Assembly: GCF_035084215.1 (NCBI RefSeq) | Contig: NW_027138407.1 | Span: forward strand, 992,001 to 1,056,000 | Length of the DNA: 64,000 nucleotides | Direction: 5' to 3' | Source: Heptranchias perlo | Taxonomy: Eukaryota | Shown here: one piece after another, positions 2,411 to 52,785 of the stretch | How the letters are laid out: each line of letters begins with the position of its first letter | Position numbering within the stretch: position 1 is the first letter of the stretch | The notes under the pieces: model-generated | The model's database searches: none | The model's input: only the letters and a program-made list of their open reading frames with translations | Told to the model about the DNA's origin: nothing | Position numbers and translations under genes: made by a program

Positions 2411-3189
2411 CTTACAATAAATGGATTAGCTCTTCCGGTAGATTATGGGGAAAGAACACTCCGAGTAACTCGTAAGTTAGTATCCATCATGCAGTTTCAG
2501 CGCCCTGACTTATAATCCATGCCTTTGCCTCGGTGCGCAGGGCAGCTTCACTATCAACGCAGTTTGGTCTATTTGATTCAGAACGGCATAATCAGCCTGC
2601 ACTCCTTTTTAATGAGAGAGATCACAGATTCATAGAATCTTAGAAGGAGGCCATTAGGCCTACCGTGCCTGTGTCGACTTTTGGAACGAGCTATCCAATT
2701 AGTCACATATCTTGGCTCTTTCCCCATAGCCCTGCAAATTTCCCCCTTCAAGTATTTATTCAATTGCCAAGAAGGGAGACAGGGCCTAGTTTAATACACA
2801 CAGAGACAAAGTCTAGTGCAGTAATGTCCGAGACAGGACCTAGTATAATATATACTCAGTCACGGGCAATTACAGTCATAACTGAGACAGGGCAGAGTGC
2901 AATATAAACAGAGACAGGGTCTGCCGTAATGTGTACACAGACATAATCTACTGCAGTGGTAACTGAGACAAGACCTGGTGTAACATAAACAGAGGCAGAA
3001 CCTAGAATATTAATAGCTGAGACAGGGTCTAGTGTAATAGAAACAGAGGCATGCCGAGTGCAGTAATAACTGAGACAGGGTCTAGTGTAATGTAAACAGA
3101 GAAATGATCTACTGTAGTAATGACTGAGACAGGGCCTAGTGCAATATAAATAGGGACATGGGCTAGTGCAGAAATAAGTGAGACAGAGA

Positions 3190-3258
3190 TGGAGGATGTG
3201 GGCAACAAATGCTGGCCTTGCCAGCGATGCCCACGTTCCATGAAAGAATAACAAAAAG
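3190..3258 (+). mobile_element. 3' tail of the Zenon-like LINE/SINE family inserted in the satellite
   Basis: gggcaacaaatgctggccttgccagcgatgcccacgttccatgaaagaata matches the tails at ~26990-27050 and ~52365-52420. Confidence 0.75.
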
Positions 3259-6200
3259 AGCATAGCGTAATATGAACGGAGATATGATCTAGTGCAATAT
3301 TAGTAGAGACACGGTATATGCAGTAATTGCTGAGACAGGGCCTAATGTAATATCAACAGAGGCATGGGCTAATGCTGGAAAAACTGATACGGGCGTTGAG
3401 TAATATAAACAGTGGCATGGCATAGTGTGATATAAACAAAGAAATGGTCTTATGCATTAATGACTGAGACATGGCCTAGTGTAATATAAACAGAGGCATG
3501 GTCCAGTGTAATAGAAACAGAGACAACACCTACTGCATTAACTGAGATAGAGCCTAGTCTAATATAAACAGAAACATGGTCTTGTGCAGTAATAACAGAG
3601 AAAGGGCCTAATGTAATATAAACAGAGACATGGGCTATTGCATTAAAACTGAGAAAGGGTCACATGTAATTTAAACAGAGATTTGGTCCATTGTAATAAA
3701 AAAGAGACATGGGCTAATGCAGTAATTACTGATTCAGGGCCTTGTGTAATATAAAAAAAACATGGTCTGGTGTATTATAAGCAGAGACATTGGCTAATGC
3801 AGTAAAAACTGAGACAGGGCGTAGAGTTATTTAAACAGAGACATGGTCCAGTGTAACACAAACAGAGATATGGCCTACTGCATTATAAAGAGAGACATGG
3901 TCTAGTGCAGTAATAAGTGAGACAGGGTCTAATGTAATATAAGCGGAGGCACAAACTAGTGTAATATAAACAAAGAAATGGTCGAGTGCAGTAATGGCCG
4001 AAATAGGTCCTTGTGTAATATAAACAGAGACATGGGCTAGTGCAGTAATAACTGAGACAGGGCCTAGTGTAATATAAACAGAGACATGATCTAGTATAAC
4101 ATGAACTGAGGCAAGGTCTTGTGCCGTAATATCTGAGACATGGTCTAGTGTAATATAAGCAGAGGCATGGTCTCGTGCAGTAATGATCGAGGAGGGCTTA
4201 GAATAATATAAACACAGACATGGGCCGGTGCAGTCATAACTGAGACAGGGCATAGTGCAATATAATCTGAGTCATGATCGAGTGCAATATAAACAGAGGC
4301 AGGGCCTGGTGTAATATGTACAGAAACATGGTCTAATGCAGTGGTAACTGAGGTAGGGCCTGGTGTAATATGCACAGAAGCATGGTCTACTGCAATGGTA
4401 ACTGAGGCAGGATTTCGTGTAATATATACAGAGGCAGGACCTAGTACAGTATTAGCTGGGATACAATCGAGTGCAATATGAACAGAGACACGGGCTAGTT
4501 TAGTAATTGCAGAGACGGGGCGTAGTATAATATAAACAGAGGCAAGGTCCATTGTAATGCAAACAGAGGCAAGGGTACAAGGTAATAAAATCAGAGTCAT
4601 GGCTAGTGCAGTCATTACTGAGACGTGGTCTCGTGTAATTGATGCAGAAGCATTGTCTAGTGTAATATAAATAGCGAAATGGTCTAGTGCAGTAATGACC
4701 GAAAGAGGGCCTAGTATAATATAAACACAGGCATGGGCCAGTGCAGTCATAATTGAGACAGGGCAGAGTGCAATATAAACGAAGTCATGATCTAGTACAA
4801 TATAAAGAGACAGGGCCTCGTGTAATATGCAGAGAAACATGGTCTACTGCAGTGGTAACTGAGACAGGACTTAGTGTAATATATACAGAGGCAGGACCTA
4901 GTACAGTAATAGCTGGGATACGATCTAGTGCAATATAAACAGAGACACGGTCTTGTGCAGTAATTACAGAGACAGTGTAATACAAACAGAGGCATGGTCC
5001 AGTGTAATGGAAACAGAGGCAAGGCCTACAAGGTAATAAAAGCAGAGTCATGGCTAGTGCAGTCATTACTGAGACTGGGTCTAGTGTAATATAAGCAGAA
5101 GCATTGTTTAGTGTAATATAAATAGCGAAATGGTCTAGTGCAGTAATGACCGAGACAGGGCCTAGTGTAATGTAAAGAGATAAATGGGCTAATACAGTAA
5201 TAACTGAGACAGGGCCTAGTGTAATATAAACAGATACATGATCTAGTGCAGTAATAACTGAGAAACGGTCTAGTGTAATAAAAACAGAGACACGGGCTAG
5301 AGTAGTAATAGCTGGGACAGGGCCTATTGTACTACAAACTGAGAAATGTTCCAGTGCAATATAAACAGAGACATGGTCTAATGCGGTAATAAGCGAGACA
5401 ATATCTACTGTAATATGAACAGAGACACAGTCCAGCACAATAATAACTGACACGGGGCCTTGTGTAATATGAACAGAAGTATGGCATATTGCATCACTAA
5501 CTGAGACAGGGTATAGTATAATATGAGCAGTGACATAGTCTAGTGCAGCAAAAACCGAGGCAATGCCTAGTGTAATAAAAACATAGATATTGTCTAATTT
5601 ATTACTAACTGATACGTGGCATAGTGTAATATAAACAGAATAATGCTCGAGTGCAGTAATAACTGAGACAGAAGCTACTTAACAGGGACATGGTCTAGTG
5701 CAGTAATAACTGAGACAGGGTACTACTGTAATGCAATCAGAGGCATGGCCTAGTTCAGTAATGACTGAGATATGGTCTAGTGTAATAAAAGCATAGATTT
5801 AGTCTAATTCATTATTAACTAAGACAGGGCCTAGTGTAATATTAGCAGATATATGGTCTAGTTTAACATAAACAGAGACAAGCCTAGTGTAATGCAAATA
5901 AAGAAACGGACTAGTGTAATACAAACAGAGACATGGTCTAGTGCAGTAATAATGGAGACATGGCCTCGTGTAACATAGACGGGGGCATGGTCTAGTGCAT
6001 TAATAACTGGAACAGTGTCTGGTGTAAAATGAACAGAGGCGTGGTCTTGTGTAACATAAACAGAGGAACAGTCTAGCGCAGTCATAACTGAGACAGGGCC
6101 TGGAGTGATGTAAAAAGACGCATAACCTAGTGTAATATCAGCAGAGGCATGGTCTACTGCAGTAATAACTGAGTCATCTTCGAGTGTAATACAAAGAGAA

Positions 6201-6271
6201 ACATGATCTAATGCGGTAACTGAGACAGGGTCTACTGTAATGTAATCAGAGGCATCGTCTACTTCAGTAAT

Positions 6272-6349
6272 GAATCTTACAACACCAGGTTATCTAAGAT
6301 TCCTTATATTTGTCCACCCTAGTCCATCACCGGCATCTCCACATCATGG
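6272..6349. mobile_element. Short Penelope-like retroposon relic with 13-bp TSD inside the satellite
   Basis: Flanked by ctacttcagtaat at 6259-6271 and 6350-6362; contains an inverted copy of ataacctggtgttgtaag, also seen at ~40301. Confidence 0.55.
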
Positions 6350-7600
6350 CTACTTCAGTAATAACAGAGACATGGTCTAATTCGGTAATCACTGAGACAG
6401 GACTTACTTTAATATAAACAGAGGCAGGGCCTTGTGCAATAATAACCGAGACAGGGTCTACTGTAATATAGAGACATGGTTTAGTTTAAAATAAACAGAC
6501 ACATAGCCTCGTGTATTGTATACAGAGACATGGACGACTGTAACGGATTTTTGTTAGTTAACTGAAATGTAGCTATGGTGGGTAAATTAAGCTGAGTTGG
6601 AGAACGTCCATGGTGTGATTGAATGGTGGAACAGGCCCGATGGACGGAATGGCCTCCTCCTGTTCCTAAGTAACAGGCTCGAGGGACGGAATGGCTTATT
6701 CTTGTTCCTATCTGCCAGCAGCAGCGGGGCGGGGGAACACGTTCGGTCCCCGTGCGGGCGGCAGCGGCCTGCACTAGCCCAGTGAGCATCGATTAATCTT
6801 CAGGTTGGTTTCATTTTCCAAATTGAGGCCGGGCGCTGCTCAGGGAAAGAATCTCCTTGACTGAAATTAACTGGTGCAAAAAGGGAAAAGGTGCATTCGG
6901 ACCAAATATTAGCAAAGGCTGTTTTATTGTTTTTTATATGTAAGTACCGAATAGAGGAAAAAGTGACAGGACATTAACAGGTTAGTTGCTCCAAGCTGCC
7001 GATTATCCCGTTATGAGGGAAAAGATGAATATTCCGCCCTCAGGACGTGTCCTGCTCCACCGTGGATAGGCTCCAAATTATAACTAGATCTGCTCTGATG
7101 GATATGTTTTTTCCAAAGATGATTCGGCATCGCGATATTAAGTATTCGAGGGTTTAAGAAACACATAGAAAAGAAACACAGGCAGAATTTGGGAACTGGA
7201 TCCTATCCGATTAACGGAGCGGCCAGCAGGGAGTTTGTGGCGGTATCAGCAACCTCTTCTTTGGAGCTGATCTGAACATCGATCCAGGGCTTTAAGGGGG
7301 AAAACAGATGATCAGAAGCAGAAAGTACAGTTCAACCAGTCGATTCATTCTTTGATCGATCTTTCAGAGAGATTGGATTCTGCAGTTTAATTTCTCGGCC
7401 GCTCCTGGAAACACCTGGGCGACAGTTTGATCCGAGGTTAATTTGTTTACCTCTCGTTTTGTGTTTCAGCGCCTGACAGCGCACTGCACATTGTGGTTGC
7501 ATCTGCCCTCGATTCTACACAACTCTCCGCAGCCAGGGCCTCCGGCCTACAGTCCAACGGCAGTTTTTGTACAGGGGTGAGACTGATTTCCATCACTGTG

Positions 7601-8649
7601 ACTCACTGAGAGAGCAGTAATACACGGCAGCGTCAGTCAGCAGCAGCCCGAAGATGGATAAAGTGGTGAAGGTGTTGGAGGGCTGGAGCTCAACAGAGAA
7701 ACGGATTCCGAAACCTTCTCCTTTCTGTTCCTGTGTATCCCAAGACCTTCTCCGCGCTACAAACTGAGGCTTCGTCTCTCTTTGTTGCCGGTACCAATAT
7801 AAATAATAATTTTTGGCTGTGGTACTATAAATACATTCCATAATCACCGATTCACCTTCTCTTCTGCTCTCTGTAGACTTGGACTGATTAACAGATTCTC
7901 CATGACTCTGGTCTGTAACATGTTGAGGAACAAGTTAAGATCAAGTATCAAAAGGTATCAATGAAATAATATTGTATAGAATGTTCAGCGGAGAAACACG
8001 CCAACCGGGCTGATCCGCTGTTTATGCTCCATACGAGCCTCATCCCACCAATCTCCATCTAACCCTAGCAGCAGAACCTGCTATTGCTTTCCCCCTCGTG
8101 TGTTTATCCAGCTTCCACTTAGATGCATCTGTGCACTCTCTGGGTAAAGACGTTTATCCTGAATTCCTTATTGGATGTATTAGTAACTATCTTATATGTA
8201 TGGCCCTCAGTATTGGTCTCCCCCGCAAGTGCGTAACATCTTCTCTACATCTACCCTATCAAAGACCATCGTAATTTTAAAACCTGTGTTAGGTCACCCC
8301 TCTCCCTTCTCTATTCTAGCGAAAAGAGCCCAGCCTTTTCAGTCTTTCCTGAGAGTTATAACCTCTCAGTTCTGGTATCTCGATTGTAAATCTTTTTTAT
8401 TTGCGCCTTCTCCAGTGCCTCGATATCCTTTTTGTAAGATGGAGATCAGAACTGTTCACTGCACTGCAAGTCTGGGCTAACCAACGTTCGATACAAGTTG
8501 AATATAACTTCTCTGCTTTTCAATTCTATCCCTCTAGAAAAGAACCCCAGTATTTTTTTTTAATATTAACACATTAGTTTGAACACGACATGATTGGAGT
8601 CATCCTTACCGAAAATAAATGCCCCAAACACAAGCCAGAATATCCGCAT
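7601..8649 (-). CDS. TRAV/TRDV: TCR alpha/delta V segment, apparently functional (leader 8610-8649, V exon 7601-7912)
   Basis: MRIFWLVFGAFIF|DQSHGESVNQSKSTESRREGESVIMECIYSTTAKNYYLYWYRQ...DAAVYYCSLSE; GT/AG splice sites; RSS CACAGTG-23-ACAAAAACT at 7600-7562. Confidence 0.93.
7975..8550 (-). mobile_element. CR1 3' fragment in the leader intron of the V at 7601
   Basis: CR1 RT-end and 3' UTR similarity to the other CR1 copies in the window. Confidence 0.75.
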
Positions 8650-8907
8650 GGCCGCTGCCGAGCCCGAACCTGTCAGTCCAGTTAAAAGCCCAGTACCGGA
8701 TCCGAATCGTCTCCGTCATGGCTCTTATTGGTTGAACGTCACTTCCGGATCTCGTTTTTCCCCAAATGGCGTAATCTCCAATACACCCGCCATATATGTA
8801 AATATGCTTCAAATGAGGGTCCCAAGGAAACAAACTCAATCATGTTGTGCACGTGCTTAACACAACTTTTACATCATAGTCCCGAATATGTTGGCAGCAT
8901 TTTAGAG

Positions 8908-9451
8908 ATGGCGCCGCTTGGTCTGTTCCTGATGTCCCTTTTAATAGGTAGATTGTGATATGTGTTCCCTGTGCTTGTGTGAATGCCCCTGATGTCCCCT
9001 GTAATAGGCAGATCGTGATAATTGTTCCCTATGCTGCTGTGAATGCTCCTGATGTCCCTTTTAATAGTTAGGTAGTGATATGTGTTCCCCATTCTGGTCT
9101 AAATGCTACAAATTAAGAAAGGAATTAACTGATGATTTAAATCATTTATTACAGGGAAAATCCAAGGGAGTTCAGTGACGCAGCCTCAACGTGAGCTGCG
9201 GGTATCTGAAGGAGATAATCCTGAATTGAATTGCAATTACAACACCAGTTTGGCTGATCCGGATCGTTACTGGTATCGACTGTACCCGAACCAGGCATTA
9301 CAGTTTATATTATACCGTGATAACGCCAGGCGAAAGGATGCCGATTTTGTGAAAGGAAAATTCGATGCTCGTCACTTCAATAAATATCAAGTTTTTCCTT
9401 TATCACTTTCTGCAGCAGAGACTAAAGACAGCGCCGTGTATTTCTGCGGCA
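8908..9451 (+). CDS. TRAV/TRDV: TCR alpha/delta V segment, intact ORF with a short 3' end (leader 8908-8947, V exon 9155-9451)
   Basis: MAPLGLFLMSLLI|GKIQGSSVTQPQREL...LNCNY...YWYRLYP...DSAVYFCG; RSS CACAGTG-24-ACAAAAACC at 9452-9491. Confidence 0.9.
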
Positions 9452-10384
9452 CACAGTGCTGCAGAGATACAGCGAATCCCATACAAAAACCTACACCGAG
9501 AGTTCCAGTTATTGCTCGCCAGAAGGCGCTCCCACACCGATAAACAGAAGCTATAATTGAACCACCACAGTGAGAGTCACAAGGGACCTTCTTAAAAAGG
9601 ACTACAAACCACAACACTCAACAAGAGCAGGTAAGGTCCACTTATGGATTCATGTTAGTTGGTGATTTCAACGTGAATTTATAATAAAAATGAACTTCAC
9701 AATTCCATCTGTGGTGCCTTGACTCCCCTTTGTCTTTTGATGCCCTTTCCATGCCGACTGCAATATTGTGGAGCCCTTTACACACCTCCCCTGTCAGTTA
9801 TCCGGACCCTTTGATCGTGGCCTGTACTCAGATTTCACAAGGTAGTGATTGTGCTCTTCAAAATAAGCCACAAGCACAGACTTCCCCCAATGTCCATTCT
9901 CCTTCAGGATGTCTCCTGAACGCTGGAATGTTTTCTGACACCATTAACAATCGCTGTGCTTCCTGGTTACAATAAACAAACAATGGCTTAATCCGCACCC
10001 CGGTCTCTAAAAGAGAATCCATTTCCCCTATAAGGGGACTGTAGCCCAGCTCGGGGTGAGTTCATTCACTGGCAGCCAGCTCAACACCTATCGGTCTCAC
10101 AGCACCACCGGGGAAACCAGGAAGTGAGGTGAGAGCATATTGAGACACGGTAGCAGAATATTTAGGGTGAGGATTAGAACGGGTGTCTTCAAATATCCAA
10201 CCCCCTTTTACAGAACGAACAGCGACAATACAGCTATTGGACATCTGGATTGTGTGGTGGCCATTTCTGACAGAAATTGTGGACCAAACACATTTAACTT
10301 TTTCTCTCATTTCCAAACACGATTTGAGTCTAAATTTTAAACACGCGCTGATTTGACCTTTTCCTGTTTGAACATGTTTTTCAG

Positions 10385-10690
10385 ATCTAAGTCATTGAGA
10401 TTCTGTCACTAAGCCGCTGTCCTCAGGAGTTAAGACAGAAGGAGAAGCGGTGACTTTAAACTCTCCCTGTGATACTACATGGGGCGGCTATAATACATGT
10501 TGGTACCGGCAACACTCAGACAAAAGAGCCCGAATTTATATTGAGGAAAGATTGAGGAGGTAATGAAGATGAACCGGAGTTTGCTGAAGGCCGTGTCTTT
10601 GTTCATTTCCAGAGGGCCAACAAATTCTCCAGTTTAACCATATCGGGTCTACAGCTGGCCGACACTGCAGTTTATTACAGTACCGAGATT
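10385..10690 (+). pseudogene. TCR V pseudogene
   Basis: Splice acceptor; remnants EGEAVTL, WYRQH and LQLADTAVYY; in-frame TGA and frameshifts; heptamer CACAGCG at 10691 with a decayed nonamer. Confidence 0.8.
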
Positions 10691-10814
10691 CACAGCGATG
10701 GAAACAAGTTAAACCCTCGGCCAGCAACTCCCACCGCTTTGTAGATTAGAGGCTTTGCCTGCTGAAGCCGGTTATAACGGCGGACAGTTGCTGACCAGGT
10801 GCGGAGTGCCGCTC

Positions 10815-10926
10815 CTTCACCGGCTTAACCATCAACGAGCTGCATCTGAGTGACACTGCCGTGTATTACCGCGCCCTCTGGGACTCACAGTGATGGAAAG
10901 CAGACGCACCCACCCCTACAGAAACT
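10815..10926 (+). pseudogene. 3' fragment of a TCR V with RSS
   Basis: LTINELHLSDTAVYYRALWD then CACAGTG-25-ACAGAAACT (10886-10926); the 3' flank is an inverted paralog of that of the V at 7601. Confidence 0.75.
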
Positions 10927-11159
10927 GCTGTTGGACTGTGGGTCGGAGGCCCTGTCTGTTGGGGGTTGTGCAGATTCGCGGGCAGATGAATACACACTGT
11001 GCAGCGCGCTGTCAGGCACTCAGGCACTGAGATTAAACCAAATTAACCTCGGAAAAAACTGTCACCCAACTCATTCCAGCAGTGGCCCAGAAACTAAACT
11101 GCAGGATACAATCGGTCCGAAAAATCGACCACAGAGGCTTGAGCAGATAATCTAGGCTG

Positions 11160-11410
11160 ACATTCCCACAGTCAGTACCGAAGGAATGCTGCACTGTCAG
11201 AGATGCGGTGTTTCGGATGATACATTAAACCGTCTGCCCTCTCAGGTGGACGTAAAATATACCACAGCCACTTTTGGAAGAAGAGCAGGGGAGCTCTCCC
11301 CGGTGTCCCGAGGACAATATTTATACCTCAGCCAAAGGATTAACTGGTCATTAGCACATTGTTATTTGTGGGATCTTGCTGTGCACAAATTGGCTACCGC
11401 GTTTCTTACA
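11160..11410 (+). mobile_element. Deu-domain SINE (SacSINE1/AmnSINE1-like) fragment
   Basis: gctgcactgtcagag...ctctcaggtggacgtaaaa...gaagagcagggg...gtgggatcttgctgtgcacaaattggct; related copies at 25640, 27265 and 62500. Confidence 0.7.
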
Positions 11411-12079
11411 AACAACGTCAAACTGTATTTTTCTTGAGAAAAGGTTCATTGCAAAGTGGGCGATTGGATGTACTTTGTGTCCACGAATCTCAAAGGAAAA
11501 ACGTTCACACGTTTAACAAGGATAATGCCCCTGAACGGGCTTCTAATTCACGATACTTTAAATGAAAGTAAACTTATTTTTCCATCGGAATGAACAGACA
11601 GAGAGAAATTAAACCGTCGCTTCCTGCAGTGCGATTTCCTCAACGCCGCCAATCCGCGTGCACAGACAACATCACGTGCCAACTGTAAGATTCCGGCGGT
11701 TTAACCTCTGCAGGTGGTGCAATAGCTGATTTCTACTTCACAATTCTGCAATCTGACAAGAGCCGTTTCCAAGTGTACTGTTTTTAAATTGTGTTATTTT
11801 CTACCCACGCCAATGTAAACGGTGCCTGAATTCACCGTTTACATTGGCAAGTTCACCTTCTTATGCTTCTCAATGGCTGCATCTGGGAGAGAGAGTGAGA
11901 AAGGGAGAGAGGCAGAAATAGAGATGAAGAAAGAGGATCACAGAGAGAAAGAGGGAGATTAGAAGATCGTCACAGATGTATTGCAGTAGGAATGTTTAAG
12001 ACGTGAGGCAGAGAAATAAGAGAGATAGAAGTAGTAAAATGGAGATAAAGAGATGGCGATATTTCACTATTCTGCTGCG

Positions 12080-12595
12080 GGTAGAAGTTGAGGAAGGCCT
12101 TCGAGAGGGTGCAGAAAAGATTTACTGGAATGGTCCCAGGGATGAGGGACCTCCGTTACGTGGATAGACTGGGGAATCTGGGGTTGTTCTCCTTGGAGCA
12201 GAAGAGCTTGAGAGGAGATTTGATGGAGGTGTTCAAAATCATGAGGGGTCTGGACAGAGTAGATAGAGATAAACTTTTTCCATTGGCGGAACGGTCGAGA
12301 ACAAGAGGACACAAATTTAAGGTGATTGGCAAAAGAACCAAAGGCGACATGAGGGAAAACGTTTTTACCCAGCAAGTAGTTATGATTTCAATGCACTGCC
12401 TGAAAGTGTGCTGCAGGCAGATTCAATTGCGGCGTTCAAAGGGAATTGGATAAGTAGTTGAAGGGAAAATATTGCAAGGCTGCGGGGAAAGGGCAGGGGA
12501 GTGGGACCAGCTGGATTGCTCTTGCAAAGATCTGGCACGAGCTCGACGGGCCGAATGGCTTCCTTCTGTGCTGTAACTATTCAATGATTCTATGA
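12080..12595 (+). mobile_element. CR1 LINE 3' fragment
   Basis: ERVQKRFTGMVPGMRDLRYVDRLGNLGLFSLEQKSLRGDLMEVFKIM...SRTRGHKFK. Confidence 0.9.
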
Positions 12596-13001
12596 CTCTA
12601 ACAGAGGCAGAGGTAGAGAGGGACAGATACAAAAAGGAAGAGAGAAATAATAAGAGTAGGAAATGGAAACAGAGACAGAAACATAAGAGAAGTGAGACTG
12701 TGTTGGAAAAAGAGATATCAAAAGAGTAGGAGACCCACTGGACAACAACTGGGCAACTTATTAACTGGCAGAAAAGGCGCCATCAACATAGTTTTAACAA
12801 TGTGCAGTTAGCGGCAATAATTAAAGTAAATCCTCATTACTTAACCTAACAGGAATATGTTTCGTAACAGAAAAATGGCACAGAAGATCTTCCTACAGCA
12901 TTTGTAAAGCAGGGCGAGTCTCGCCGCTCTCTCCCCACAGCCCCCCACTACCCTCGAGGCCAGGTTTTTGCACAGCCGTACAGCTCATTGCTGTCACAGT
13001 G

Positions 13002-13254
13002 AGTGCCTGGATCTCACAATAATAGACCATGGTGCCCGGCGCCTCCACCCTTCTGAGAGCCAAATAGCCTCGCTTTTCGGCAGTTTCGAGCATGATCTCC
13101 AATCACCCGACGATATCTTTGCCGCTCCTTGTGCTGATCATGACGCGCTCCAGCCGTCGATTCGGGCCCTCCCTGCAGTCAAATTGCGCCCGATGTCCCT
13201 GCTGGACTGTTTTGGAAACCGGCGACTGCAGCACTTCATCTGCACGGCAACCGT
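13002..13254 (-). pseudogene. TCR V pseudogene (CDR1/FR2 deleted, internal stop)
   Basis: DEVLQSPVSKTVQQGHRAQFDCR...G*LEIML...TMVYYCEIQAL; RSS CACTGTG-23-GCAAAAACC at 13001-12963. Confidence 0.8.
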
Positions 13255-13972
13255 CTGAGGAAACATAGGAAATATGATCAATAATGGTCTAATGATTATC
13301 GATAGAGAGTAAAAACCAATAGGTTGGGTATAATCACTGAAACACGCTGCAAATCAACAACAGTAAAGATGCAGACGCATAATAATAAGGATGAGATAGA
13401 ACTATAAACTTTTCAACGCAGCAGAAGGCTGCATCGTTTCAGCGCTGACTCTCGGAAAGAGTCACGTGCCCGTTCCCTTTCCGTGGCCTTCGATCCTTGG
13501 GACAATCAGCGCCTCGCGGGCCCTCTGAAAGCCCCTTCCACTGAGACTGATACCCCCGACTTTCAGCACGCTCTGTTATTAGTTCCATCTTTTATATATA
13601 TATATTTATCAGCATCCATCTTGGAAATTATTACGATGATCTGAATTTCACGCCCTCTTGTTACCGACATAACGCAGAATGAAAGGTTTTCCACAAATTC
13701 CTTTCTCACGACCTGTTACAACGTTCAACGCCTCTATCAGATCTCCTCTTAACCTACTTTGTTCCAATGAAAAGAGCAGCAGTTCGCCTTTTCTGTACTT
13801 ATAACTCGAACAGCTCAATCCTCGTGTTATTTCAAGAAATCTCTTTTACACCCCACCAATTACCGAATGTGATTATATAGATATGTAGGGTAGGATGTTT
13901 CATCGGCTTAGATGTGCATTTCTACTGTGCTCTATTTTTATTACGGATTTGACACATTCGCCCATTATTCCT

Positions 13973-14134
13973 NNNNNNNNNNNNNNNNNNNNNNNNNNNN
14001 NNNNNNNNNNNNNNNNNNNNNNNNNNNNNNNNNNNNNNNNNNNNNNNNNNNNNNNNNNNNNNNNNNNNNNNNNNNNNNNNNNNNNNNNNNNNNNNNNNNN
14101 NNNNNNNNNNNNNNNNNNNNNNNNNNNNNNNNNN
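13973..14134. other. Run of N (assembly gap or masked sequence)
   Basis: N run. Confidence 1.
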
Positions 14135-14885
14135 TATAAGAACATAAGAAATAGGAGCCCATCGAACCTGCTCCGTCATTCAATAAGATCATGGCTGATC
14201 TTCGACCTCAACTCCACTTTCCTGCCCGGTTCCCTATCCCGTGATTCCCTCAGAGTCCAAAAATCTATCGATCTCAGTCTTGAATGTACTCAACGACTCA
14301 GCAACCAAAGCCCTCTGGGATTGAGAATTCCAAAGACTCACAACCCTCAGTGAAGAAATGCCTCCTCATCTCAGTCTTAAATTTCCAGCCCCTTATCTTG
14401 AGACTATGCCCCCTTGTTCTACACTCTCTAGCCATGGGAAACAACCTCTCAGCATCTACCCTGTTAAGCCCCCTCAGAATGTTTTATGTTTCAATGAGAT
14501 CACCTCTCATTCTTCTAAACTCCAGAGAGTACAGGCCCATTCTACTCAGCCTCTCCTCAAGGGACAGCCCTCTCATCTCAGGGATCAATCTAGTGAACCT
14601 TCATTGAACCGCCTCTAAGGCAAGTATATCCTTCCTTAGATAAGGAGACCAAAACTATACACAGTGCTCCACATAAGGTCTCACTGAAGCCGTGTACAAT
14701 TATAGTAGGACTTCCTTACTCTTGTACACCACCCCCTTGTAATAAAGGCCAACATTCCATTTGTCTTCCTAATTGATTGCTGTACCTGCATGCTAACTTG
14801 TTGTGTTTCTGATACGAGGGCACCCAAATCTCTCTGAACACCAACATTTAATAATTTCTCACGATTTAAAAAAATCTGTTTTTCT
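14135..14885 (-). mobile_element. CR1 LINE 3' fragment
   Basis: (ataagaac)n tail on + followed by CR1 3' UTR and RT end in reverse. Confidence 0.85.
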
Positions 14886-14889
14886 TTAT

Positions 14890-15080
14890 TTCTATCTATC
14901 TATCTATCGATCTATGCATCATCCATTTCTCTGTCTTTCGATCTATCTATCTATCTATCTATGTATCTATCCATCTTCCGTCTGTCTGTCTGACTATCAA
15001 TCTGTCATCCGTCTGTCTGTCTGACTGTTAATCTGTCTATCTGTCTATCTATCTATCCATCTACCTATCATCCTCTCTAT
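14890..15080. repeat. TCTA/TCTG microsatellite
   Basis: Direct tetranucleotide repeats. Confidence 0.9.
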
Positions 15081-15177
15081 CGTTTGTGAAAGGGAGTACT
15101 TGTGCCTCACTGATTCAAATAGGGTACAGATAATAGTCTAACTCTATAGCGTAATCATAAGCGTATAAATTAAGAAA

Positions 15178-15300
15178 AGGAAAATGCTGAAATCTGAAAT
15201 AAAAACAGAGAATGCTAGAAAACACTCAACCGGTCGGGCAGCATCTGTAGAGAGAGAAACAGAATTAAAGTTTCAGTTCGATGAACTTTCATCAGAACTG
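15178..15300 (-). mobile_element. Penelope-like retroposon relic with a minimal hammerhead motif
   Basis: Minus strand: CTGATGA-a-agttc-atc-gaact-GAAA-ctttaa then ttctgtttctctctctacagatgctgcccgacc. Confidence 0.6.
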
Positions 15301-15410
15301 TAAACTAAGAATGCAGTTTGGGAATTAAGACGACCTCTGCATCTACTCCCACGGCTTCCTGCGCAGACAGGGGTTTATGTACAGCCACTGCCGTATCTCC
15401 TCTCACAGTG

Positions 15411-15846
15411 TCTTTCAACTGCGCAGTAATAGACGGCGGAATCTGCTGGCACCGAATCTGTAAGGCTAAACTGGCAGCGTTTATCAGATTTGGTGAGCTG
15501 AACTATAAACGGCCCCGTGCGACCTTTCCCGTTCGTCGACTTGCTTATTATCCAGTCTAGCCGTCCGTCTGATCGCTGTCTGTACCAGTGCAAACTGTAG
15601 AAGTTGGATACCGTGTAACTGCAGAGAATGTGTGCGGACCGCCCGACCTGAACTGTGCTGGACGGAGGAGATTGACGGACATCAGCGGCGTGGCCAAGGC
15701 CTGTTAAGATATTGAAATTGTAAAAGGACAATGGTATCAATCATTCCCAACCCCCACCGAGAGTGTATAGTGACTAACAATTACCTACACAATAAGGTGA
15801 TCGCAATCGCTGCTAACAGAACCATCCCCACAGTCCAGAAGTTCAT
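15411..15846 (-). CDS. TRAV/TRDV: TCR alpha/delta V segment, apparently functional (leader 15789-15846, V exon 15411-15700)
   Basis: MNFWTVGMVLLAAIAITLL|CLGHAADVRQSPPS...ILCSYTVSNFYSLHWYRQ...DSAVYYCAVER; RSS CACTGTG-23-ACATAAACC at 15410-15372. Confidence 0.92.
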
Positions 15847-18104
15847 TCAGTCTCAAGACGGATGAACGATCACTCGGTGTTTCTCTGTCCCCATAGGACA
15901 ATGCTGCCCTGATCTTTATCTGTGTGTGATACAATATCACTCTCTGATTATTTCTGACACCAGCGGAAACAGATTAAACCCCGCCCCTTCCATAGAAGCT
16001 CGACAACGCTGATTGGTCAATTTAGCAAGCAACTTGGGACAAATATTTATGTCTGTTCGCTATATGCAGCGAAATCCGCAACCCCTTCGTCCTGTACTGG
16101 TTGAGCAATTTGCTAAACCCTCGGGACAAAGTCGTTACTTACCCTTCATTTTTGTTTGAACATTGGATTCAATCTATTGCTTTATTGGGGGAGGGGGTGT
16201 TACGAGAACGCAGAGCTTTCAACCCCACAATGCCCCATCTCCCACTATCCTCTTCCTTCCTAAACACCAATCTCTTCCCCATTCACCAGCGAATTAGCTT
16301 CTGATTCCTCCATCCCCCTTTCCAATCGCAGCTCGTATCGCCACTTTATACTCCGTCAATCGTCACTCTGCATCCTCACCCTTTCTCACGCTGGTTTAAT
16401 GTTCGTTCCGGACTCTTTCCATTCTAGCTGCAATTTGCAGACATTATTTCCCTACTCCTTGAATATGCTCCACCTCGCCATCTCCTTCTCTGCTTTGAGA
16501 AGTGAGGCGAAATACACCTTTACTTCGACTGGACATTCGACCGTTCCACATCGTTATTGATGATATTTTTCGTTTTGTTTTGTAAATAGTTGTGATGCGA
16601 GGGCATTAACGGTAACGAGGGTGAAATACGGACATCTGTGGCCCTGGTGCACGGGACCCACAAACTGGCCTAAATTTTACCGTGATTACAGACGGAAATT
16701 TTCAATAGACTAAAGCAGGATTGAGGAAATCTAATTCACCAAGCATGACACGTTCTGTGCGTGTTAAGCTCTGCATTGTAAATGAAGAATAAAGTTTGAT
16801 ATGTGTCTAAAATTGAGAGTAGCGGTGTATAGGGTGTGGTCCCAAGGGAATATAAGTTTCTTCACGGTTACAGGCAAAAATACCAATAACAATATCAATA
16901 CATTACGAATAACAATAGCTATAATAATACCAATAACACCAATATCAAATGTAATAATAATAATAATGGAAGAAGAAAAACAAGAAGAAATTGTAGAACG
17001 TATTGGAATGTTATGCCAATTTGTAATATAAATTAGTTGGAAGATGACTCGAAAATCGACGCATAGCCCTGCCCCCTTGAAGTGGTGGGTAAAGCGGAAT
17101 ACATCCTTGGGCAACAGTGCCACCTTCAGGTCGTAAACTAGGTTTTGTAAATGAGTGTCAATTGAATTGTGCATACATGTTGGACGTATTAGTGATGGGG
17201 AAATTAGTTGACAAAATGACGTCATACCAGCCCCTTATTTACTTATGCTCCAATATCCCAAGCATTAAGGTCAGGGTTAGGGCTATGCTGTCAAGGTGTT
17301 TTATATTGGTTACATTTGACAATAATTGAGTGAAATTTCTTCTGGTCCCTATCAACTCTTATCTCTACCACAAGCACAGTGGGAACATTTTCTATAACGG
17401 GTTGCCAATCGGCCCCCCGTGATAGAAACCGCCTGATTTTCCTTTCAATTGATTGCATCCAGTTTACGCCGGGCCAGCAAGTTGGGATTTTAGCCCAAGG
17501 TTTGGTGATCGTGTGTTTTTTGCCACCAGGTGATGCAAAATTTGGAGTTGGTGACGATGGGATCACGAGAGGACACAGGGAGCGAGCTGGTGTACAGATT
17601 CAGTCATTCATCATTCTGAACAAGGATATATTGTACCGCATGAAATCGGGACCTATTCCACACTGATCCATTTCTTCATTAAGCAAAATCCTGAAACGCC
17701 CTTTTACAGTTTCGTCATTATATGCTGGTTGGTGGTTCGGAGATTCTCTGTATTAAACATGCTGTCCCCAGCTTTTAACGTGGTATTGCACTGAAATTGA
17801 GCCTTTCCCCGGTAGGTGTTAACAGCGGAAGGAATTGAGATATCTTTGTTTCACACAAAAAGCCAGAGAATGCAAAAATGAGAAGGTTTAGCGGCAGAAA
17901 ATAATTATAATGCGACATAACAGCAGATGAATGGAACGTGAATAAAAATAAGAACGGCAAGAAAGAAAGACAGAAAGAAAGAAAGAGAGAAAAAGAAAGG
18001 ATGAAACAGCTCAACGAAACTGATGTTTAATTCGTCTTTTTAAACAGGTGTCAAAATAATATCAAGCCAGTCCTTCAAACGGTCCGACTCTAATATCTCA
18101 ATTC

Positions 18105-18930
18105 AAGAGAATGGGAGTGTAATTGGCAAATGAATTTCAATATCGATATCTGTGAGGTGGTGCATTTTGGTCGGAAGAATTAGGAGACCACATACTGCTT
18201 GGAAAATGAAAGGCTAAATGGGATGGAGGAGCAGAGGGATCTCGGGGTACACAAATCATTTAAAATAGCGTCGCAGTTTGGTAAGGCCATATAAAGGCAA
18301 ACCAAACACTGGAGTTCATTTCTAGAGGGATAGAATTGAAAAACAGAGAAGTTATATTCAACTTGTATAGAAGCTTTGTTAGACCACACTTGGAGTAATG
18401 TGCACAGTTCTGGTCACCATATTATAAAAAGGAAATAGAGGCATTGGGAAGGTGCAAAATAGATTCACAAGGAGGATACCAGAACTGAGAGGATATACTT
18501 AACAGGAAAGGCTCAACAGGCAGGGGATCCTTTCTCTAGAAAAAGGAAGGCTGAGAGGTGAACTGATAGAAACATTTAAGATAATAAAATGATCTGATAG
18601 GGTAGGCGTAAAGAAAATGTTTCCACTAGCGGGGGAGTCCAAAACTAGAAGTCATCAATATAAGATAGTCACTAATAAATCCAATAGGTTATTCAAGAGA
18701 AATTTCTTTAATCAGAGACTGGGAAGAATGTGGAACGCGCTATCAGAGGGAGTCATTGAGGCAAAAAGCATTGATGCATTGAAGGGGAATTTAGATCAGC
18801 ACGTGAGGCAGAAAGGAATAGAAGGATATGCTGATAAGGTATGATCAAGAAGAGAGGGAGGTGGCTCGTGTGGAGCATTAACGCCGGCATACACCTGTTG
18901 GGCCGAATGGCCTGTTTCTGTGCTGTAAAT
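18105..18930 (+). mobile_element. CR1 LINE 3' fragment
   Basis: Decayed RT end (MFPLAGESKTRSHQYKI...FFNQRLGRMWNAL) and CR1 tail. Confidence 0.85.
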
Positions 18931-19363
18931 AACTTAAAGCATCGGACCGTCTTTCACTTTCATTTCCTTGGAGGATAATGGTGGGCGATTTCATCTGGTC
19001 AATATAATTATTTAAGGACATGATACCCAGAGCGGGAAGATTGCTCCTGATTGGAATGTCCAATGATGTTTCATGAGTTTAAGAACGGATATTTTGATAA
19101 CACAAACAGCAAATGTGAGAATTTGCAGTGCCCCGCTATCGTTATCTCTGAGACAACGTCACGAGAGGAACATTTCAGCCAAAATTCCTCCATTTGATCC
19201 ACGTGTGAAAATTCCCTTAAAGCGCCCCGGATGAAGGAAGAACTGTTTACTAAGCGACCGATATGTGTTGCTTTTGGGTAGCGGTTTGACTGTGATCCAA
19301 TCCACCAAGACTTTGCTCAGAGAGGAGTTTTGCACAAAAGCTGCGTCTTTGCTCCACACCGTG

Positions 19364-19520
19364 GCTCAAGGCACAGCAATAGATTCCTGTATCCGCCAAC
19401 TTTGCCTGATCAATGCCGAGTGTGCTCAAACTTTGATCGCGGTCGGGTGTACATCTTCAACCGGTCTTGGTGACCCTCTCCTTTCGCACGTTCAGAATCA
19501 CACCGAGGACATCACCACTT
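19364..19520 (-). pseudogene. Decayed TCR V pseudogene (3' part)
   Basis: STLGIDQAKLADTGIYCCALS then CACGGTG-23-GCAAAACTC (19363-19325); the 5' part is not readable. Confidence 0.65.
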
Positions 19521-20877
19521 TACAGATGCACACAGTTGTAATCGTCCATAGCGATTGGTGTCCGTTCACTCTGGTCGAGGAATCGGGTCCGTGCATTGGT
19601 TTCGCAGCAATCCTTTCACTCCTGGGACTCTGTGTTCAAATCTAGCCGAGACAAAGGGGATGGGACTCTTCCTTTCTTGTGGGCGACTGGTGTGTGAAGT
19701 GCGTCAGACAGATTACCTTATAAGGCACTCGGCTGTACCGAATACCAGGGAGAAATGGATATTAGCGGTCCCGTTAAGAGGACTCACCCGCCCAAGAGAG
19801 AAAAATAAAGCAGACAATTATGACAGATGAAATTTAATCTTGAAAAGTGTAAAGTATTGTACATAAGAAGGGAAAGTAGGCAAAATACATATTCACCAGT
19901 TATGTTGAAAGCGCCGACGATTAATTTGAAAGAGGGCGGGGAGTCTAAAGGTCCTAAACCTACAGGAAATGCAGTGCAGCGCAGTGGGATACTCGCCAGG
20001 GTCTGGGAACACTTTACAGTGGATGTTCGCATTGACATGGTTAAACGGATTTAATATTTGTTGACACCGTTTGTTTAACTGCAACATTCAGCTGATTAAC
20101 ATATGTACAATGTAAGAAAATAGCTTTCATAAGAATGTACCTTTTGGATATTCTATAATTCTGATTCACGATAAGAACCGTGTTATCCCCAGGCTCACAA
20201 AAGGAATCAGCTACAAAAATCTTCATCACTGTGCTGGGATAAAACTATGATGTAAGCAGATATTGGAAAATGTAATAAAATCCCAGCCTATTCTGAAGTT
20301 AATTGTAATTAGTAATGATGACGTTCTTTAATTCTAAATAGTGTCAACTGAAGGTGACCAGTTCGTTTACAGTCAGCTAATATGTGAAATTATTGAATTG
20401 TAAGGAAGTGATACATATTAATGAGCCAAATCTGAGAGTTGAAAAATAATTTCTAGTTAATTCATATTAAAACAAACGTTAGCCGGTATTGGTTGATGCA
20501 ACGTGACCGGCTGTGGGAAACAGCGGTCTGTCATCGCCACCTGGTGGCCGGGGTTAAAGTATTTTCATTGAACTGCTCTCAGAACATTGCTCTCTGTTTG
20601 TGTTCTCTCCCTTTCCATTTCCTGGCTGATTCAGGATGACGCGCTGAAGCTGCGGTGCATGCGTTCTCATCACACACCCCACCCCCGACCCGCCCCACCC
20701 CCTCATCGCTGCTGAGCCTGGATCTCCCCTCACAGGTTCACTCTGTAAGTCACAGAGGCCAGTGTGTGACCGGCGCAGTGTCGTGGTCTTGGGCTCAGAT
20801 TAGTACTGCCTTGTCCTGGAGTCCCTTTGGGCCTGGATCTGCCGACACTTACTTTACACAAGTCGATAGGATCCGAA

Positions 20878-21369
20878 ATGAAGCTGAGCTTCACTTTAGT
20901 GTTTATCTCTCTGGGCGTTTTACTCTCCCCTCCATGTGAGTATGGTAATAATCTCTAGCTGTTCAGGAATATTTTGTACCATATTCATTTACATATATTT
21001 ATAAATATATGATATTAATTAGATGATATTATGTTGTATTATGTAATATTATATTGTATTATAATGTATTATATCATATCTACATATGGTTCGCAGATGC
21101 TACTGGCAGTGCCGAAGTAACGCAGTCTCCCGAGTGGATGGTTGTTACCGAAGGAAAGACTGCATCGTTGAACTGTGTCACGACAGTCACAGGACAGCTC
21201 TTACGTTGGTACAGACAATACCCGAACCGAACCGTGCAGCACCTGGCGACCGGTACGAGCGAACAGAACAGGATTAAGGCTCGGTTCAGTTCAGCAGAGA
21301 AGCGCGGTGCTCTGACTGTGAGCGGCGCTCGAATGACAGATACCGCCACCTATTTCTGCACGGTGGAGA
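20878..21369 (+). CDS. TRAV/TRDV: TCR alpha-type V segment with short CDR2, apparently functional (leader 20878-20935, V exon 21097-21369)
   Basis: MKLSFTLVFISLGVLLSPP|YATGSAEVTQSPEWMVVTEGKTASLNC...WYRQYP...DTATYFCTVE; RSS CACAATG-23-ACAAAAACT at 21370-21408. Confidence 0.93.
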
Positions 21370-21594
21370 CACAATGCAGCAAAGATCGGTAGAGACCGTA
21401 CAAAAACTTGCCGGGAGGTGCTGGGCGCTTCCATGCTGTCCCGTTGCCAAAGCGCTGGGCGTTTTATAACACTGTAGCTGGGAAACACCCTTCAGTTTCC
21501 CAGTAAGTGAAGCTGCCTCTGATCTGAGTTCTCTATAATATCAGGCTAGGAGGGTCAATTCCGCTATTTTCTGCCGAACTCCAAACCGGACACC

Positions 21595-21975
21595 ATGTGC
21601 ACCTTGTGTTCCTTACTGATAATAATTGTGGGACTGCCCTGCGAGTCTATGCTTAAATAGTCATTGTATGTTTCATGGGTTATATTTACGAACATATTTT
21701 TGACACATTCTGCATTTTGTTACAGGAACGAATGGCGAAGATTCAGTGTCACAGGATCTGTCCGAACTAATGGTTCAAGAAGGACAAGACCATAATACTG
21801 AACTGTGGCTTGTCGACAAGAAACACTGCCCCGACTTTCTTCTGGTACATCCAGTATCCCGAGGAAGCCCCGAGATAATCACTGAGCAGATACGGCTCGG
21901 GGAAGCAGATCAATCTCCAGATTTCCCAGACCGATTCTCTGCTGATTTGGACAATGACAAGAATACAATTCTTTG
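21595..21975 (+). pseudogene. TCR V pseudogene, 3'-truncated paralog of the V at 34545
   Basis: Leader MCTLCSLLIIIVGLP with GC donor; SPDFPDRFSADLD; frameshift; no YYC or RSS. Confidence 0.85.
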
Positions 21976-22118
21976 ATATCGATACCAGACAGTCTTTGGT
22001 CTTCGTGGGTTTGGGGTTAAACTATCCCGACAGATAAAAGCACCAAAGATCATTTAATGAAGCTATAAATACTCGCCAACATTTTTGTACAAGGCCTTTG
22101 CTTTTATCTGACGCTGTG

Positions 22119-22387
22119 CGTCACTGCACAGTAATAGACCGCCCCGTCCTCCACACTCAAGCCGCTTATATTGAGGTAACCGTACTTTTTAGACATATCA
22201 AAAGCCGCCATACATTGTCCTGAGATTTAGTCTCCCTTCAATCCTGCTGCTTTACTAATTATCAAGCTTGGAGCCTGTGCCGGTTTCTGCACGGTGTAAA
22301 TGTCCAGAGTTTTATAACTGCACCGAACCCCCTTCTGAAATGGCCATTGTCAACGGGAACTGAATTACTGGATCGCACATTGTCCGC
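22119..22387 (-). pseudogene. TCR V pseudogene (paralog of 47205-47508)
   Basis: KYGYLNISGLSVEDGAVYYCAVT; stops and deletion in FR1-FR2; RSS CACAGCG-23-ACAAAAATG at 22118-22080. Confidence 0.85.
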
Positions 22388-22699
22388 CTATAAAGATAGA
22401 GAACAAAAAGAATAGAAGGTTAAACAAGATCTATCTAAACTTGTGTCTCTCTGTGTGAGTGCATGTCACCTTTCATCCACCCAGCTGTCCATCATATGGA
22501 TATTACTGATTGTTAATCGCACTAAATCCCTGCAGAAGCTCTTTGCATCAATCGGCTAATCCGTGTTCTTTAACATAATACATTACTTACTGTCCTACAT
22601 GGCCGCTTATATGGTTAGAAACACACCTGACTGGATCCCTCACTGTGACTGGGAATTGAGTGACGAAGACACTGGGAAGGAGGGAGGTAACCCTGTTCA

Positions 22700-22985
22700 C
22701 GAGCACCATCAAAATAAGAAAGTCCCTAATAAATCAAGCATGGAATCCAGGAAAAAACTTCTTTACCCAGAGAGTGGTTAGAATGTGGAGCTCGCTGCCG
22801 CAAGGAGTAGAGGCGAATAGCATAGATATGTTTAAGGGGAAACTAGATAAGTACATGAGAGAGAAAATAATAGAAGGATATGCTGATGGGGTTAGATGAA
22901 GAAGGGTGGGAGGTGGTTCGTGTGGACCATAAACAATGGCATGGCTCTTTTGGGGCGAATGGCCGACTTCTGTGCTGAACATAAG
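22700..22985 (+). mobile_element. CR1 3' end fragment
   Basis: FFTQRVVRMWSSLPQGVEANSIDMFKGKLDKYM plus tail. Confidence 0.85.
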
Positions 22986-23408
22986 ATGTAATTCTATGAA
23001 ATCCTGTTTCTCTATCTGTTTTTCTCTCTCTCCGTTTCTCTGTCCGACTCCCTCTCTGTCTGTCTCTGTCTGACTTTCTCTATGTCCACCTATGTTTCCC
23101 TCTCTGTGTCTCTCTCTCTCATTCTAATCTACTTTCCTGTTCCATTTTCGCGCACTAACCTTAACTTTAGAATGTCAAAAGATGCATTTCTACATTTTTT
23201 AGTTCAGATTCCGACATTCTGAAATGTCATTTTACTTCTGCCATCTTTTTCTCCGGATACAAACCCACAGCCGGAAATTGTCTGTATCTGATTCTCGTCC
23301 TGTCAGTAATGAAGTCTCACTGTACATAAATTGAACTCCCTTCACGCAGGCAATGCTACTATCCAGCGAGAGTTTCTGTACGGCACCTATATCAGTTGCA
23401 GCACTGTG

Positions 23409-27788: not shown

Positions 27789-28231
27789 AGTCTCAGCCCG
27801 CAGAAATATACGGCGGTGTCCTGGATTTCCGTTCGAGTGATCGTTAAAGGAAACTTCTTTGCTGAGTTGGCCTGGCCGGCTTCGAATCTTCCCTTAGCGA
27901 AATCCGCCTCCTGTTTTGCGCTGTTATCCCGATATAAAATAAAACGTGGAGCCTGGTTCGCGTGCGACCGGTACCAGTACAGATCGGGGTTATTGTGGCC
28001 TATAGTGTAGCTACAGTTTATTTTCGCATCATTTCCTTCAGCGACATAGAGCGCGGTCTGAGGTTGCGAAACCGAATCTGCCTGAATCTCCCCTGAAATA
28101 GAAGTAAACTTAGGGTTGAATACAAAACTGATTTAGAAAGTCTATTAACGCCACATTTATGCAAACAAATATAAGGCATGGTCATACCTACCGAGCATAA
28201 ACCACAACAACACGAGATGATGGTACGACAT
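27789..28231 (-). CDS. TRAV/TRDV: TCR alpha/delta V segment, apparently functional (leader 28192-28231, V exon 27789-28092); missed by the ORF track
   Basis: MSYHHLVLLWFML|GEIQADSVSQPQTALYVAEGNDAKINCSYTIGHNNPDLYWYRSHANQAPRFILYRDN...DTAVYFCGLR; RSS CACAGCG-23-ACAAAAACC at 27788-27750. Confidence 0.93.
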
Positions 28232-31107: not shown

Positions 31108-31645
31108 ATCCTCATGCCGCCGTAATACACGGCGCTATCTTTCGTCTCTGCTGCAGAATTTGATAAAGGAAAAACTTGATATTTATTGAAATGACGAACA
31201 TAAAGTCGGCACCCTCTCGCCTGGTGTTATCACGGTATAATATAAACTGTGGTGTCTGGTTCTGGTACAATCGGTACCAGTAATGATTGGGATCATCTGA
31301 ACTGGTGTTGTCGATACAACTTAATTCATGATTATCTCCTTCAGATGCCTTCAGCTCACGTTGAGGCTGCGTCACCGAGCTTCCTTGGATTTTACCTGTA
31401 ATAAATGATTTAAATCATCAGTTCATTCCCCTCTTCATTAGCAGCATTTAAACCAGAATAGGGAACACATATCATTACCTACCTATTACAAGGGACATCT
31501 GGAGCATTCACACCAGCATAGCCACACATATAACAATTTACCCATTACAAGGGACATCAGGAGCATTCATAGACGCACAGGGAGCACATATCTCAAGGTG
31601 TCTATTTAAAGGGACATCAGAAACAGGCCAAGCGGCGCAATCTCT
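31108..31645 (-). pseudogene. TCR V pseudogene, inverted paralog of the V at 8908
   Basis: VTQPQRELKASEGDNHELSC...FILYRDN; start ATG>ATA, frameshifting deletion, YYC>YYG; RSS CACAGTA-22-ACAAAAATC at 31107-31070. Confidence 0.9.
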
Positions 31646-32352
31646 ATTATGATTCTAACATATTCAGGTCCCTGATGTACAAGCTGTGTTAAACATGTGC
31701 CCAACACAGTTGAGCTTTTCTTCCTTGGGTCTAAAGCAGGCCAATTATACGCCTTGAAGCTATTGTGTTGCAAACAGCAGCAATGGCCACGTGACATCAA
31801 ACAAAGGCACTTAACGTCTGTCATGTTGGATGGCATAGATCGCTTCTGTGCGTGTTTACATCAGCGATTGAATGGGGGGATAGGGGCAATAGGCAGAGGC
31901 AAGGATTCCCAGGGGATCATGGAATCATGCCACGTTGTTCTTGAAAATACTGATGTGTAGAGTGCAGCAATTTTCAGATCAAAATTTGAGTTGTGCTCTT
32001 AAGTCAATTACACTTCCATGGAAAATATGCGTCTTTCCTTTTATCTATCTAACTAAATATCTATCAATTCATTCGTCTACCTATCTATCTATTTATCTAT
32101 CTATGTAACTACCTATCTATTTCTATGTGTGCGTGAGGCCCTTGTCTGTCCATCTATTCACTCTGTATGTTGTACAACCAAACATAGGAAATCTCAGTTA
32201 ATAGGTTTCGCTGCAATTTATTTGTAGTATATCTATAGGATTTTCTAACTTTATCCAGGTGGAAGTTCAATTGTGAGAATGTAGCATTTCTGAATATCAC
32301 TGGCATTTCTAAGTGATCGCAGTGTCTTTTTTCTGGAGTTCAGACTGGAAGC

Positions 32353-48957: not shown

Positions 48958-49114
48958 CACACTGCTGCAGAGATAGCGCGGATCCCGTACAAAAACCCAC
49001 ACTGAGGGTTGCAGTTAGTGCTCACCAGAGGGCGCTCCCACACCGATAAACAGAAGCAATAATTCAGTCTCCACAGTGAGAGTCACAGGGGACCTTCCGG
49101 AAAGGGCAACAAAA

Positions 49115-52423: not shown

Positions 52424-52785
52424 AACAAAACACTCAGAAAGAACAAGTGAGGTTCACTTGCAGAATTATATTAGTTGATTATTTCAACTCACATTTATAA
52501 TTAAAATCAAAAGTCACAAATCCATCTGTGGCGCCTTAACTCCACCGTTTGTATCTCAATGCCATTTCAGTTCTTGCCTGCAACATTGTGCATCTCTTTA
52601 CACATCTCCCCTGTCGGTTTTCTGGACCCTTTGATCGCAGCCTGCAAACATGATTTATTTGATCAAAGAATGTTGCTGGGTCTGAGGCAGTTTGTGCAGA
52701 AGGAACAGTTTTCAGAATGTAAAATAAGCCCCGAGCACAAAGTTCCCCCAATGTCCACTGTCATTCAGAATGTGTCTTTGAAGTT

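Follow-up and report, generated by a model that had tools for sequence, protein, structure and literature searches.

Activity of RAG in the germline is accepted for the immunoglobulin (Ig) clusters of sharks, in which germline-joined clusters are standard (PMC4279169), and the germline light-chain joints of these animals show deletion with little N addition or TdT activity (PMC2193156). For a germline joint of another kind, the hybrid joint, Lewis and Wu (2000; PMC2193153) describe one example, in which D1 and D2 of horned-shark IgH are joined by inversion (from Kokubu et al., 1988). On this single documented case the swapping of RSSs by hybrid joints has long been put forward, in the same paper too, as an evolutionary force on antigen-receptor loci. 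Marsupial TCR-mu contains a germline-rearranged V in a TCR locus, in the form of a complete V(D)J exon that is thought to have been retrotransposed (PMC7615758, PMC3457774). Hybrid and pseudo-hybrid joints, in which a coding segment is joined to an RSS, are also described as products that are somatic or made ex vivo, and joining against the 12/23 rule, such as 12/12 joining, is seen ex vivo as a minor product (PMC1820826).

Here we describe a V segment in a TCR alpha/delta locus of Heptranchias perlo in which the body of one V family (family A) is fused at the heptamer to the RSS and 3' flank of another (family C). Like the horned-shark IgH hybrid joint (PMC2193153), this chimera is an inherited junction of a coding end with a foreign signal end in a shark antigen-receptor locus, with the RSS swapped. 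The horned-shark case, however, is a 12/23 inversion within an Ig cluster that retains both joints, whereas the chimera is a V-to-V junction of 23/23 class between unrelated families, lies in a TCR alpha/delta array and has no reciprocal joint. With the germline-joined Ig genes of cartilaginous fish (Lee et al., 2000, PMC2193156; PMC4279169) it shares a trimmed coding end and little N addition, but those genes are coding joints in Ig clusters from which the RSS has been removed, whereas the chimera keeps a foreign RSS of working appearance in a TCR locus. The leader intron and the genomic flank are kept, which indicates an event at the level of DNA, unlike the retrotransposition thought to lie behind TCR-mu. 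In pseudo-hybrid joints (PMC1820826) the RSS side is the one trimmed and N bases are added, neither of which is seen in the inherited chimera. A search of the literature, most subscription journals lying outside it, turned up neither a hybrid joint in the germline of a TCR V array nor a NAR-TCR joined in advance.

The window is the whole stretch of 64,000 nucleotides analysed here (C240:992001-1056000, C240 being the contig that contains it), and the survey of the locus covered C240 from 600 kb to the contig end together with contig C383. On C240, V segments extend from ~817 to 1,600 kb, 126 of them on the minus strand and 57 on the plus strand, J arrays occupy 644-767 kb and 793-804 kb, and a constant-like exon is found at 635 kb. 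The V segments lie upstream of D-delta, J-delta, a J-alpha array and a constant exon, with NAR-TCR and IgH-like cassettes inside the array. The window is part of a shark-type TCR alpha/delta V array, the shark type being indicated by the VNAR-like cassettes and by family-level relatives in Heterodontus francisci.

The chimera, on the plus strand, has the parts of a TCR alpha/delta V segment. From 5' to 3' these are: 1) a leader exon of family-A' type (8908-8947), which runs from the ATG to a GT donor at 8948, is open in the spliced frame and is paralogous to the 31642-31600 region; 2) an intron (8948-9154) with ~60-nt tandem repeats that are common to the pseudogene at 31115-31729; 3) a V exon with a family-A body and an open frame (9155-9451), in which the Cys codon (9445-9447) is followed by a coding tail of GGCA (9448-9451); 4) a family-C RSS of the 23 class (9452-9491), consisting of a heptamer (9452-9458), a 24-nt spacer (9459-9482) and a nonamer (9483-9491), with the junction at 9451/9452; and 5) a family-C 3' flank (9492-11935), sister to the block at C240:976098, which holds a decayed downstream V at ~9845-10779. 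The V exon has an Ig V-set fold (Pfam V-set match, E=4.6e-12), its best PDB matches are TCR delta V structures, and the junction reads TGC GGC A + CACAGTG + 24-nt spacer + ACAAAAACC. As the reading frame is open and the consensus heptamer and nonamer are kept, the chimera is predicted from its sequence to be a usable V, which would give ~two fewer residues to CDR3. In run X5, which behaves as RNA because it contains a spliced leader at the gene at C240:1166070 (see below), a contig covering 9155-9538 at a depth of ~3 runs unrearranged straight through the chimera RSS, with a single difference in the chimera (G>A at 9332) that may be an allele or an error. No rearranged chimera transcript was seen in this run, which says nothing on the use of the V.

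The composition of the chimera, as given in the original prediction, was borne out by paired alignments and diagnostic bases. On the body side, window 8821-9451 matches 31729-31115 at 82% over 632 nt, in agreement with the claimed paralogy of leader, intron and V exon to the pseudogene at 31108-31645. This family-A' pseudogene (31108-31729, minus strand, heptamer at 31107) is the closest relative of the chimera body, and it has a full tail, a native TTTCAAAA RSS and a flank that is single-copy in the genome. The V at 27789-28087 (minus), also named as a relative, is a family-A V with 51% amino acid identity to the chimera, a full tail and a native TTTTAAAA 23-RSS. Genome-wide, family A has three members besides the chimera, and 3/3 have an 11-nt tail and an RSS of the TTT(T/C)AAAA spacer type, so the 24-bp RSS is not native to this family. 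Their tails end GGC ATG AGG AT, GGG CTG AGA CT and GGG CTG AGC AG, and relative to these the GGC A of the chimera is 7 nt short, just as had been claimed. Two family-A relatives in Heterodontus francisci end in YFCGLSS and YFCALSS, which are full tails, and a short-tail ortholog was found in none of the nine of 150 HMMER matches listed, which are family-level relatives with at most 50% identity.

On the flank side, the 24-type RSS copies besides that of the chimera (7/7 on C240 and one on C383) are all on family-C bodies. The flank had been matched to the V at 48486-48997 (plus), a family-C V with a native 24-bp RSS (heptamer 48958) whose flank is broken at ~49100-52412 by an insert that we take to be a near-complete LINE (window 49100-52412, with ORFs that have endonuclease- and RT-like motifs). 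Both sides of this insert do match, window 9432-9591 to 48932-49097 (84%), 9597-9824 to 52413-52644 (77%) and 9860-9915 to 52721-52776, but the closest flank relative is C240:976098 (83% over 379 nt), located 16 kb upstream of the window. Homology to the latter extends in pieces to window 11935, so that the family-C flank measures ~2.5 kb, and in the flank tree the two form a group with 80/86 support. In a ten-row alignment, A-diagnostic bases extend to TGC GG, CA and the heptamer are common to both families, and C-diagnostic bases start at the first spacer base, with no C-derived base upstream of the chimera tail. The breakpoint is thus not well inside FR3, a position that the original prediction had named as one that would speak against it.

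The stretch 8700-10100 is spanned by one 2,640-nt contig in each of 2/2 DNA runs, with no differences and no joint, the two runs representing one sample that is possibly the assembly's own source. Parent copies of high identity are absent, the nearest body being 82% identical and the nearest flanks 83-87%, and both a somatic event and a mis-join of copies present in the genome are thereby excluded. An assembly chimera, or a somatic T-cell rearrangement caught in the assembly, might be suspected in such a repetitive locus and with DNA from a single sample, but given the two spanning contigs and the lack of close parents we consider it exceedingly improbable. Contigs that span the junction, taken together with the absence of a near-identical parent, point to an old germline event. 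The chimera is real, inherited and unique in the locus and has lost the A-type RSS and flank; the event may be old enough for the junction bases to have drifted.

We propose, with moderate confidence, that the chimera is the product of a one-step RAG hybrid joint in a germ cell, between a trimmed A coding end and an intact C signal end. In this scenario two V segments would have been cleaved by RAG, and the family-A end, once trimmed, would have been ligated to the intact family-C signal end. If the A and C genes were in the same orientation, the joint would have deleted the A-type RSS, the intervening DNA and the C body, and such a deletional joint would therefore leave no reciprocal product. 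A separate inversion, with ends lacking an RSS, may have turned the joined piece, because the upstream neighbour at 8563-8821 (minus) is an inverted paralog of C240:979297-979555, the sequence that follows the flank in the 976098 block; it marks a separate inversion boundary without an RSS-like motif.

The anatomy of the junction fits a hybrid joint in that an A coding end is joined to the heptamer of a C segment's RSS, CACAGTG is complete, and the tail is 4 nt long against 11 nt in 3/3 family-A relatives. Neither added bases nor P nucleotides were seen in the junction alignment, and none are expected at a trimmed end. The signals, however, do not form a 12/23 pair; the lost RSS is of the 22-23-nt class and the gained one has a 24-nt spacer, so both are 23-class, as had been stated. 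A 23/23 pairing would be needed, either as a rare event or by way of several steps, their other products having since disappeared. The chimera is not a canonical hybrid joint; it works like one, or is a rule-breaking one. Of the RAG hybrid joint originally suggested, the germline status and the anatomy hold, whereas the mechanism is likely rather than proven: the 12/23 rule is broken, and neither P nucleotides nor a reciprocal product nor a signal joint was found.

The reciprocal joint, a C body on an A-type RSS, had been put forward as something to look for, and a search across 12 family-C bodies was run and yielded none. One member is left without a partner in the body tree, and one in the flank tree. 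A candidate at C240:966230-966533 (minus), a family-C body that has lost its RSS and ends 4 nt after the Cys like the chimera, was rejected as a separate deletion, on account of its junction with a tandem repeat through ~6 nt of microhomology, differing likely original downstream neighbours and an unresolved body tree. Three other truncated family-C bodies break mid-exon. An origin as a RAG transposition product was also rejected, as a second RSS end is lacking; RSS-like motifs are absent both at the far boundary (11850-12850) and at 8700-8950. Signal joints numbered 0 in the 1.1 Mb of C240 examined, and none of the 98 J motifs on C240 is in a germline V-J joint (96/98 have an RSS and the other two are not V-joined).

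These last two counts bear on whether RAG acted instead by a 12/23-compliant or multi-step route, such as a re-cleaved signal joint (pseudo-hybrid), V replacement at a cryptic heptamer in FR3 of a C gene, or exchange followed by open-and-shut trimming. Signal or V-J joints would be expected from rule-keeping routes, and none were found. Materials for such a route do exist, since 12-RSS D segments lie at window 59908-60302, 50 kb from the chimera, TTCTGTG occurs in FR3 of the C genes, and pseudo-hybrid joints from re-used signal joints have been described in lymphocytes (PMC1820826). In that description, though, the usual pseudo-hybrid joint has lost bases from its RSS side and gained N bases; moreover, V replacement would need ~17 nt of trimming, and the cryptic C site is without a good nonamer. 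We regard such a route as improbable.

A rival that dispenses with RAG is homology-directed exchange, by ectopic crossover or microhomology annealing, in register between AVYFC and the heptamer, with an unrelated 7-nt deletion before or after it. Across the heptamer and the 26 coding bases before it, the parents agree at 22/33 nt; of 9,576 unrelated pairs, 19% are at least as similar, so this agreement singles out nothing in the A/C pair. Such an exchange involves no 12/23 violation, and deletions and inversions are abundant in the locus, where 52 derived junctions were listed. If the ancestral tail ended in CA, a CA-to-CA slip would give exactly GGCA+CACAGTG. Both ingredients are present locally, in a CACAG junction at C240:951472 and a 7-nt deletion in the tail region near the Cys at C240:1192550. 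Against this, two rare events would have had to fall on one spot, the chance of a 4-10-nt deletion confined to the tail being estimated at ~0.1-0.4% per lineage; in 12 pairs of paralogous flanks, taken as neutral, the 3,679 aligned bases contain only 10 indels of this length. Full-tail swaps should then be hundreds of times commoner than trimmed ones, but there are 0 full-tail inter-family swaps among the 183 V segments with an RSS, and the chimera has no C-derived base upstream of its tail. The lack of full-tail swaps and the scarcity of such indels lead the census to favour one-step trimming of the coding end over a crossover with a later deletion. We consider homology-directed exchange possible but unlikely; were it right, the chimera would be an unusual but ordinary recombination scar.

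Across 16,653 pairs of the same 183 V segments, the chimera is the only clear inter-family swap of body and flank, other discordant pairs (three checked) being explained by a shared repeat that starts 70-110 nt downstream, by deletion in the flank or by diverged flanks of the same family. Its tail, 4 nt after the Cys, is the shortest of 136 open V segments; the next shortest is 9 nt, 128 have 9-14 nt and seven are longer. It is also the only one of the 52 derived junctions, a list that still holds copies of two events and omits at least the junction at C240:951472, in which both ends are at a heptamer with the polarity of a hybrid joint. Breakpoints fall within -12 to +7 of a heptamer in 5/104 cases against 0.97 expected when the chimera is counted, and in 3/102 against ~0.95 expected when it is not (P ~0.07 by hand, for a range picked after looking); enrichment with the chimera removed is weak.

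Random breakage would place both ends at heptamers with a probability of ~8.5e-6 per junction, or ~4e-4 over 52 junctions. This tells against a one-step deletion through CA microhomology (giving GG+CACAGTG) followed by duplication of CA, and against plain non-homologous breakage, as nothing in either would aim both breaks at heptamers; the processes able to target V ends are two, RAG and homology. The string GG-CA-CA-CAGTG does contain a CA repeat, and other deletions in the locus use 2-7 nt of microhomology, yet we think an origin of this kind very improbable.

At the C240:951472 junction (minus), the first third of a V exon is joined exactly at the RSS heptamer of the next gene, with CACAG shared (5-nt microhomology), the result either of a deletion through microhomology or of joining at a cryptic signal. 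A break that lands on a heptamer by microhomology means that heptamer precision alone is no proof of RAG. Orphan RSSs or V tails with the V body deleted were also seen (C240:1535598, 1542613, 1516089, 1556273 and the 1221082 group), their breakpoints lying between -20 and about +20 relative to the heptamer and several being duplicated copies of one event.

A second probable germline joint is found 165 kb away, at C240:1166070 (minus; L044:6064-6400), in one of six cassettes that we take to be NAR-TCR-like from their layout, which is that of NAR-TCR, the cassette V being VNAR-like. In the assembly, V of this cassette is fused in frame to D while J is unjoined, whereas the five paralogs are split, the nearest of them being 87% identical. 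The 22-nt-spacer RSS of the V, ~390 nt and the 5' 12-RSS of the D are gone, and the 3' 12-RSS of the D and the J are untouched. What has been lost is thus a facing pair of 23-class and 12 RSSs with the DNA between them, and the coding ends are fused, as in a germline coding joint. Neither a contig bridging the V-D junction nor an unjoined allele is among the matches listed. A deletion without RAG would be allowed by 6-7 nt of microhomology, AAGTAC(T), between the V tail and the 5' RSS of the D, but a further loss of 3 nt and ~3 substitutions would then be needed, and we judge it very likely that the V-D join is a RAG joint. It resembles the partly joined 'VD-J' IgH clusters (PMC2193156; PMC4279169). 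The join has the appearance of a regular 12/23 coding joint and makes germline RAG activity at the locus more probable a priori.

Taking both junctions together, we put at about even the chances that germline RAG has acted on this shark TCR alpha/delta translocon on two or more occasions, in one case making a V-to-V hybrid joint against the 12/23 rule and in another pre-joining V and D in a NAR-TCR cassette. On that combined reading, an RSS with 2.5 kb of flank would have passed from one V family to an unrelated one through the V-to-V joint, and the resulting V would be intact and transcribed. Were this correct, germline recombination in sharks would extend to TCR loci as well as Ig clusters and would be among the forces that reshape V arrays, and rule-breaking 23/23 products could become fixed. 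It would also provide a signature that can be searched for in shark assemblies, namely a V body and an RSS flank of different families with a trimmed tail between them.

Several further features of the locus were recorded. Spacers of 24 nt are native to a second family, the supporting V segments of the NAR-like cassettes, which have 24-nt tails and 24-nt spacers (C240:1163269, 1206754, 1290889, 1388697, 1434356 and 1473233). IgH-like V-D-D-J cassettes lie inside the TCR V array at window 59100-60750 and C240:1092178-1093400, with the signals V 23; D 12/22; D 12/12; then a J-like segment, and the latter copy has a DYWGQG motif. Two J-like segments without a clear RSS, 78 nt apart, occur in the J-delta region at C240:802641-802719 (minus). 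Contig C383 (43 kb) carries V segments nearly identical to those at C240 817-826 kb and 887-937 kb, and is either a second haplotype or a collapsed duplicate. A long degenerate tandem array occupies window 2770-6540. Finally, window 5500-23000 and C240:971931-991078 are old segmental duplicates of ~72-82% identity, in which several inversions have scrambled the order.
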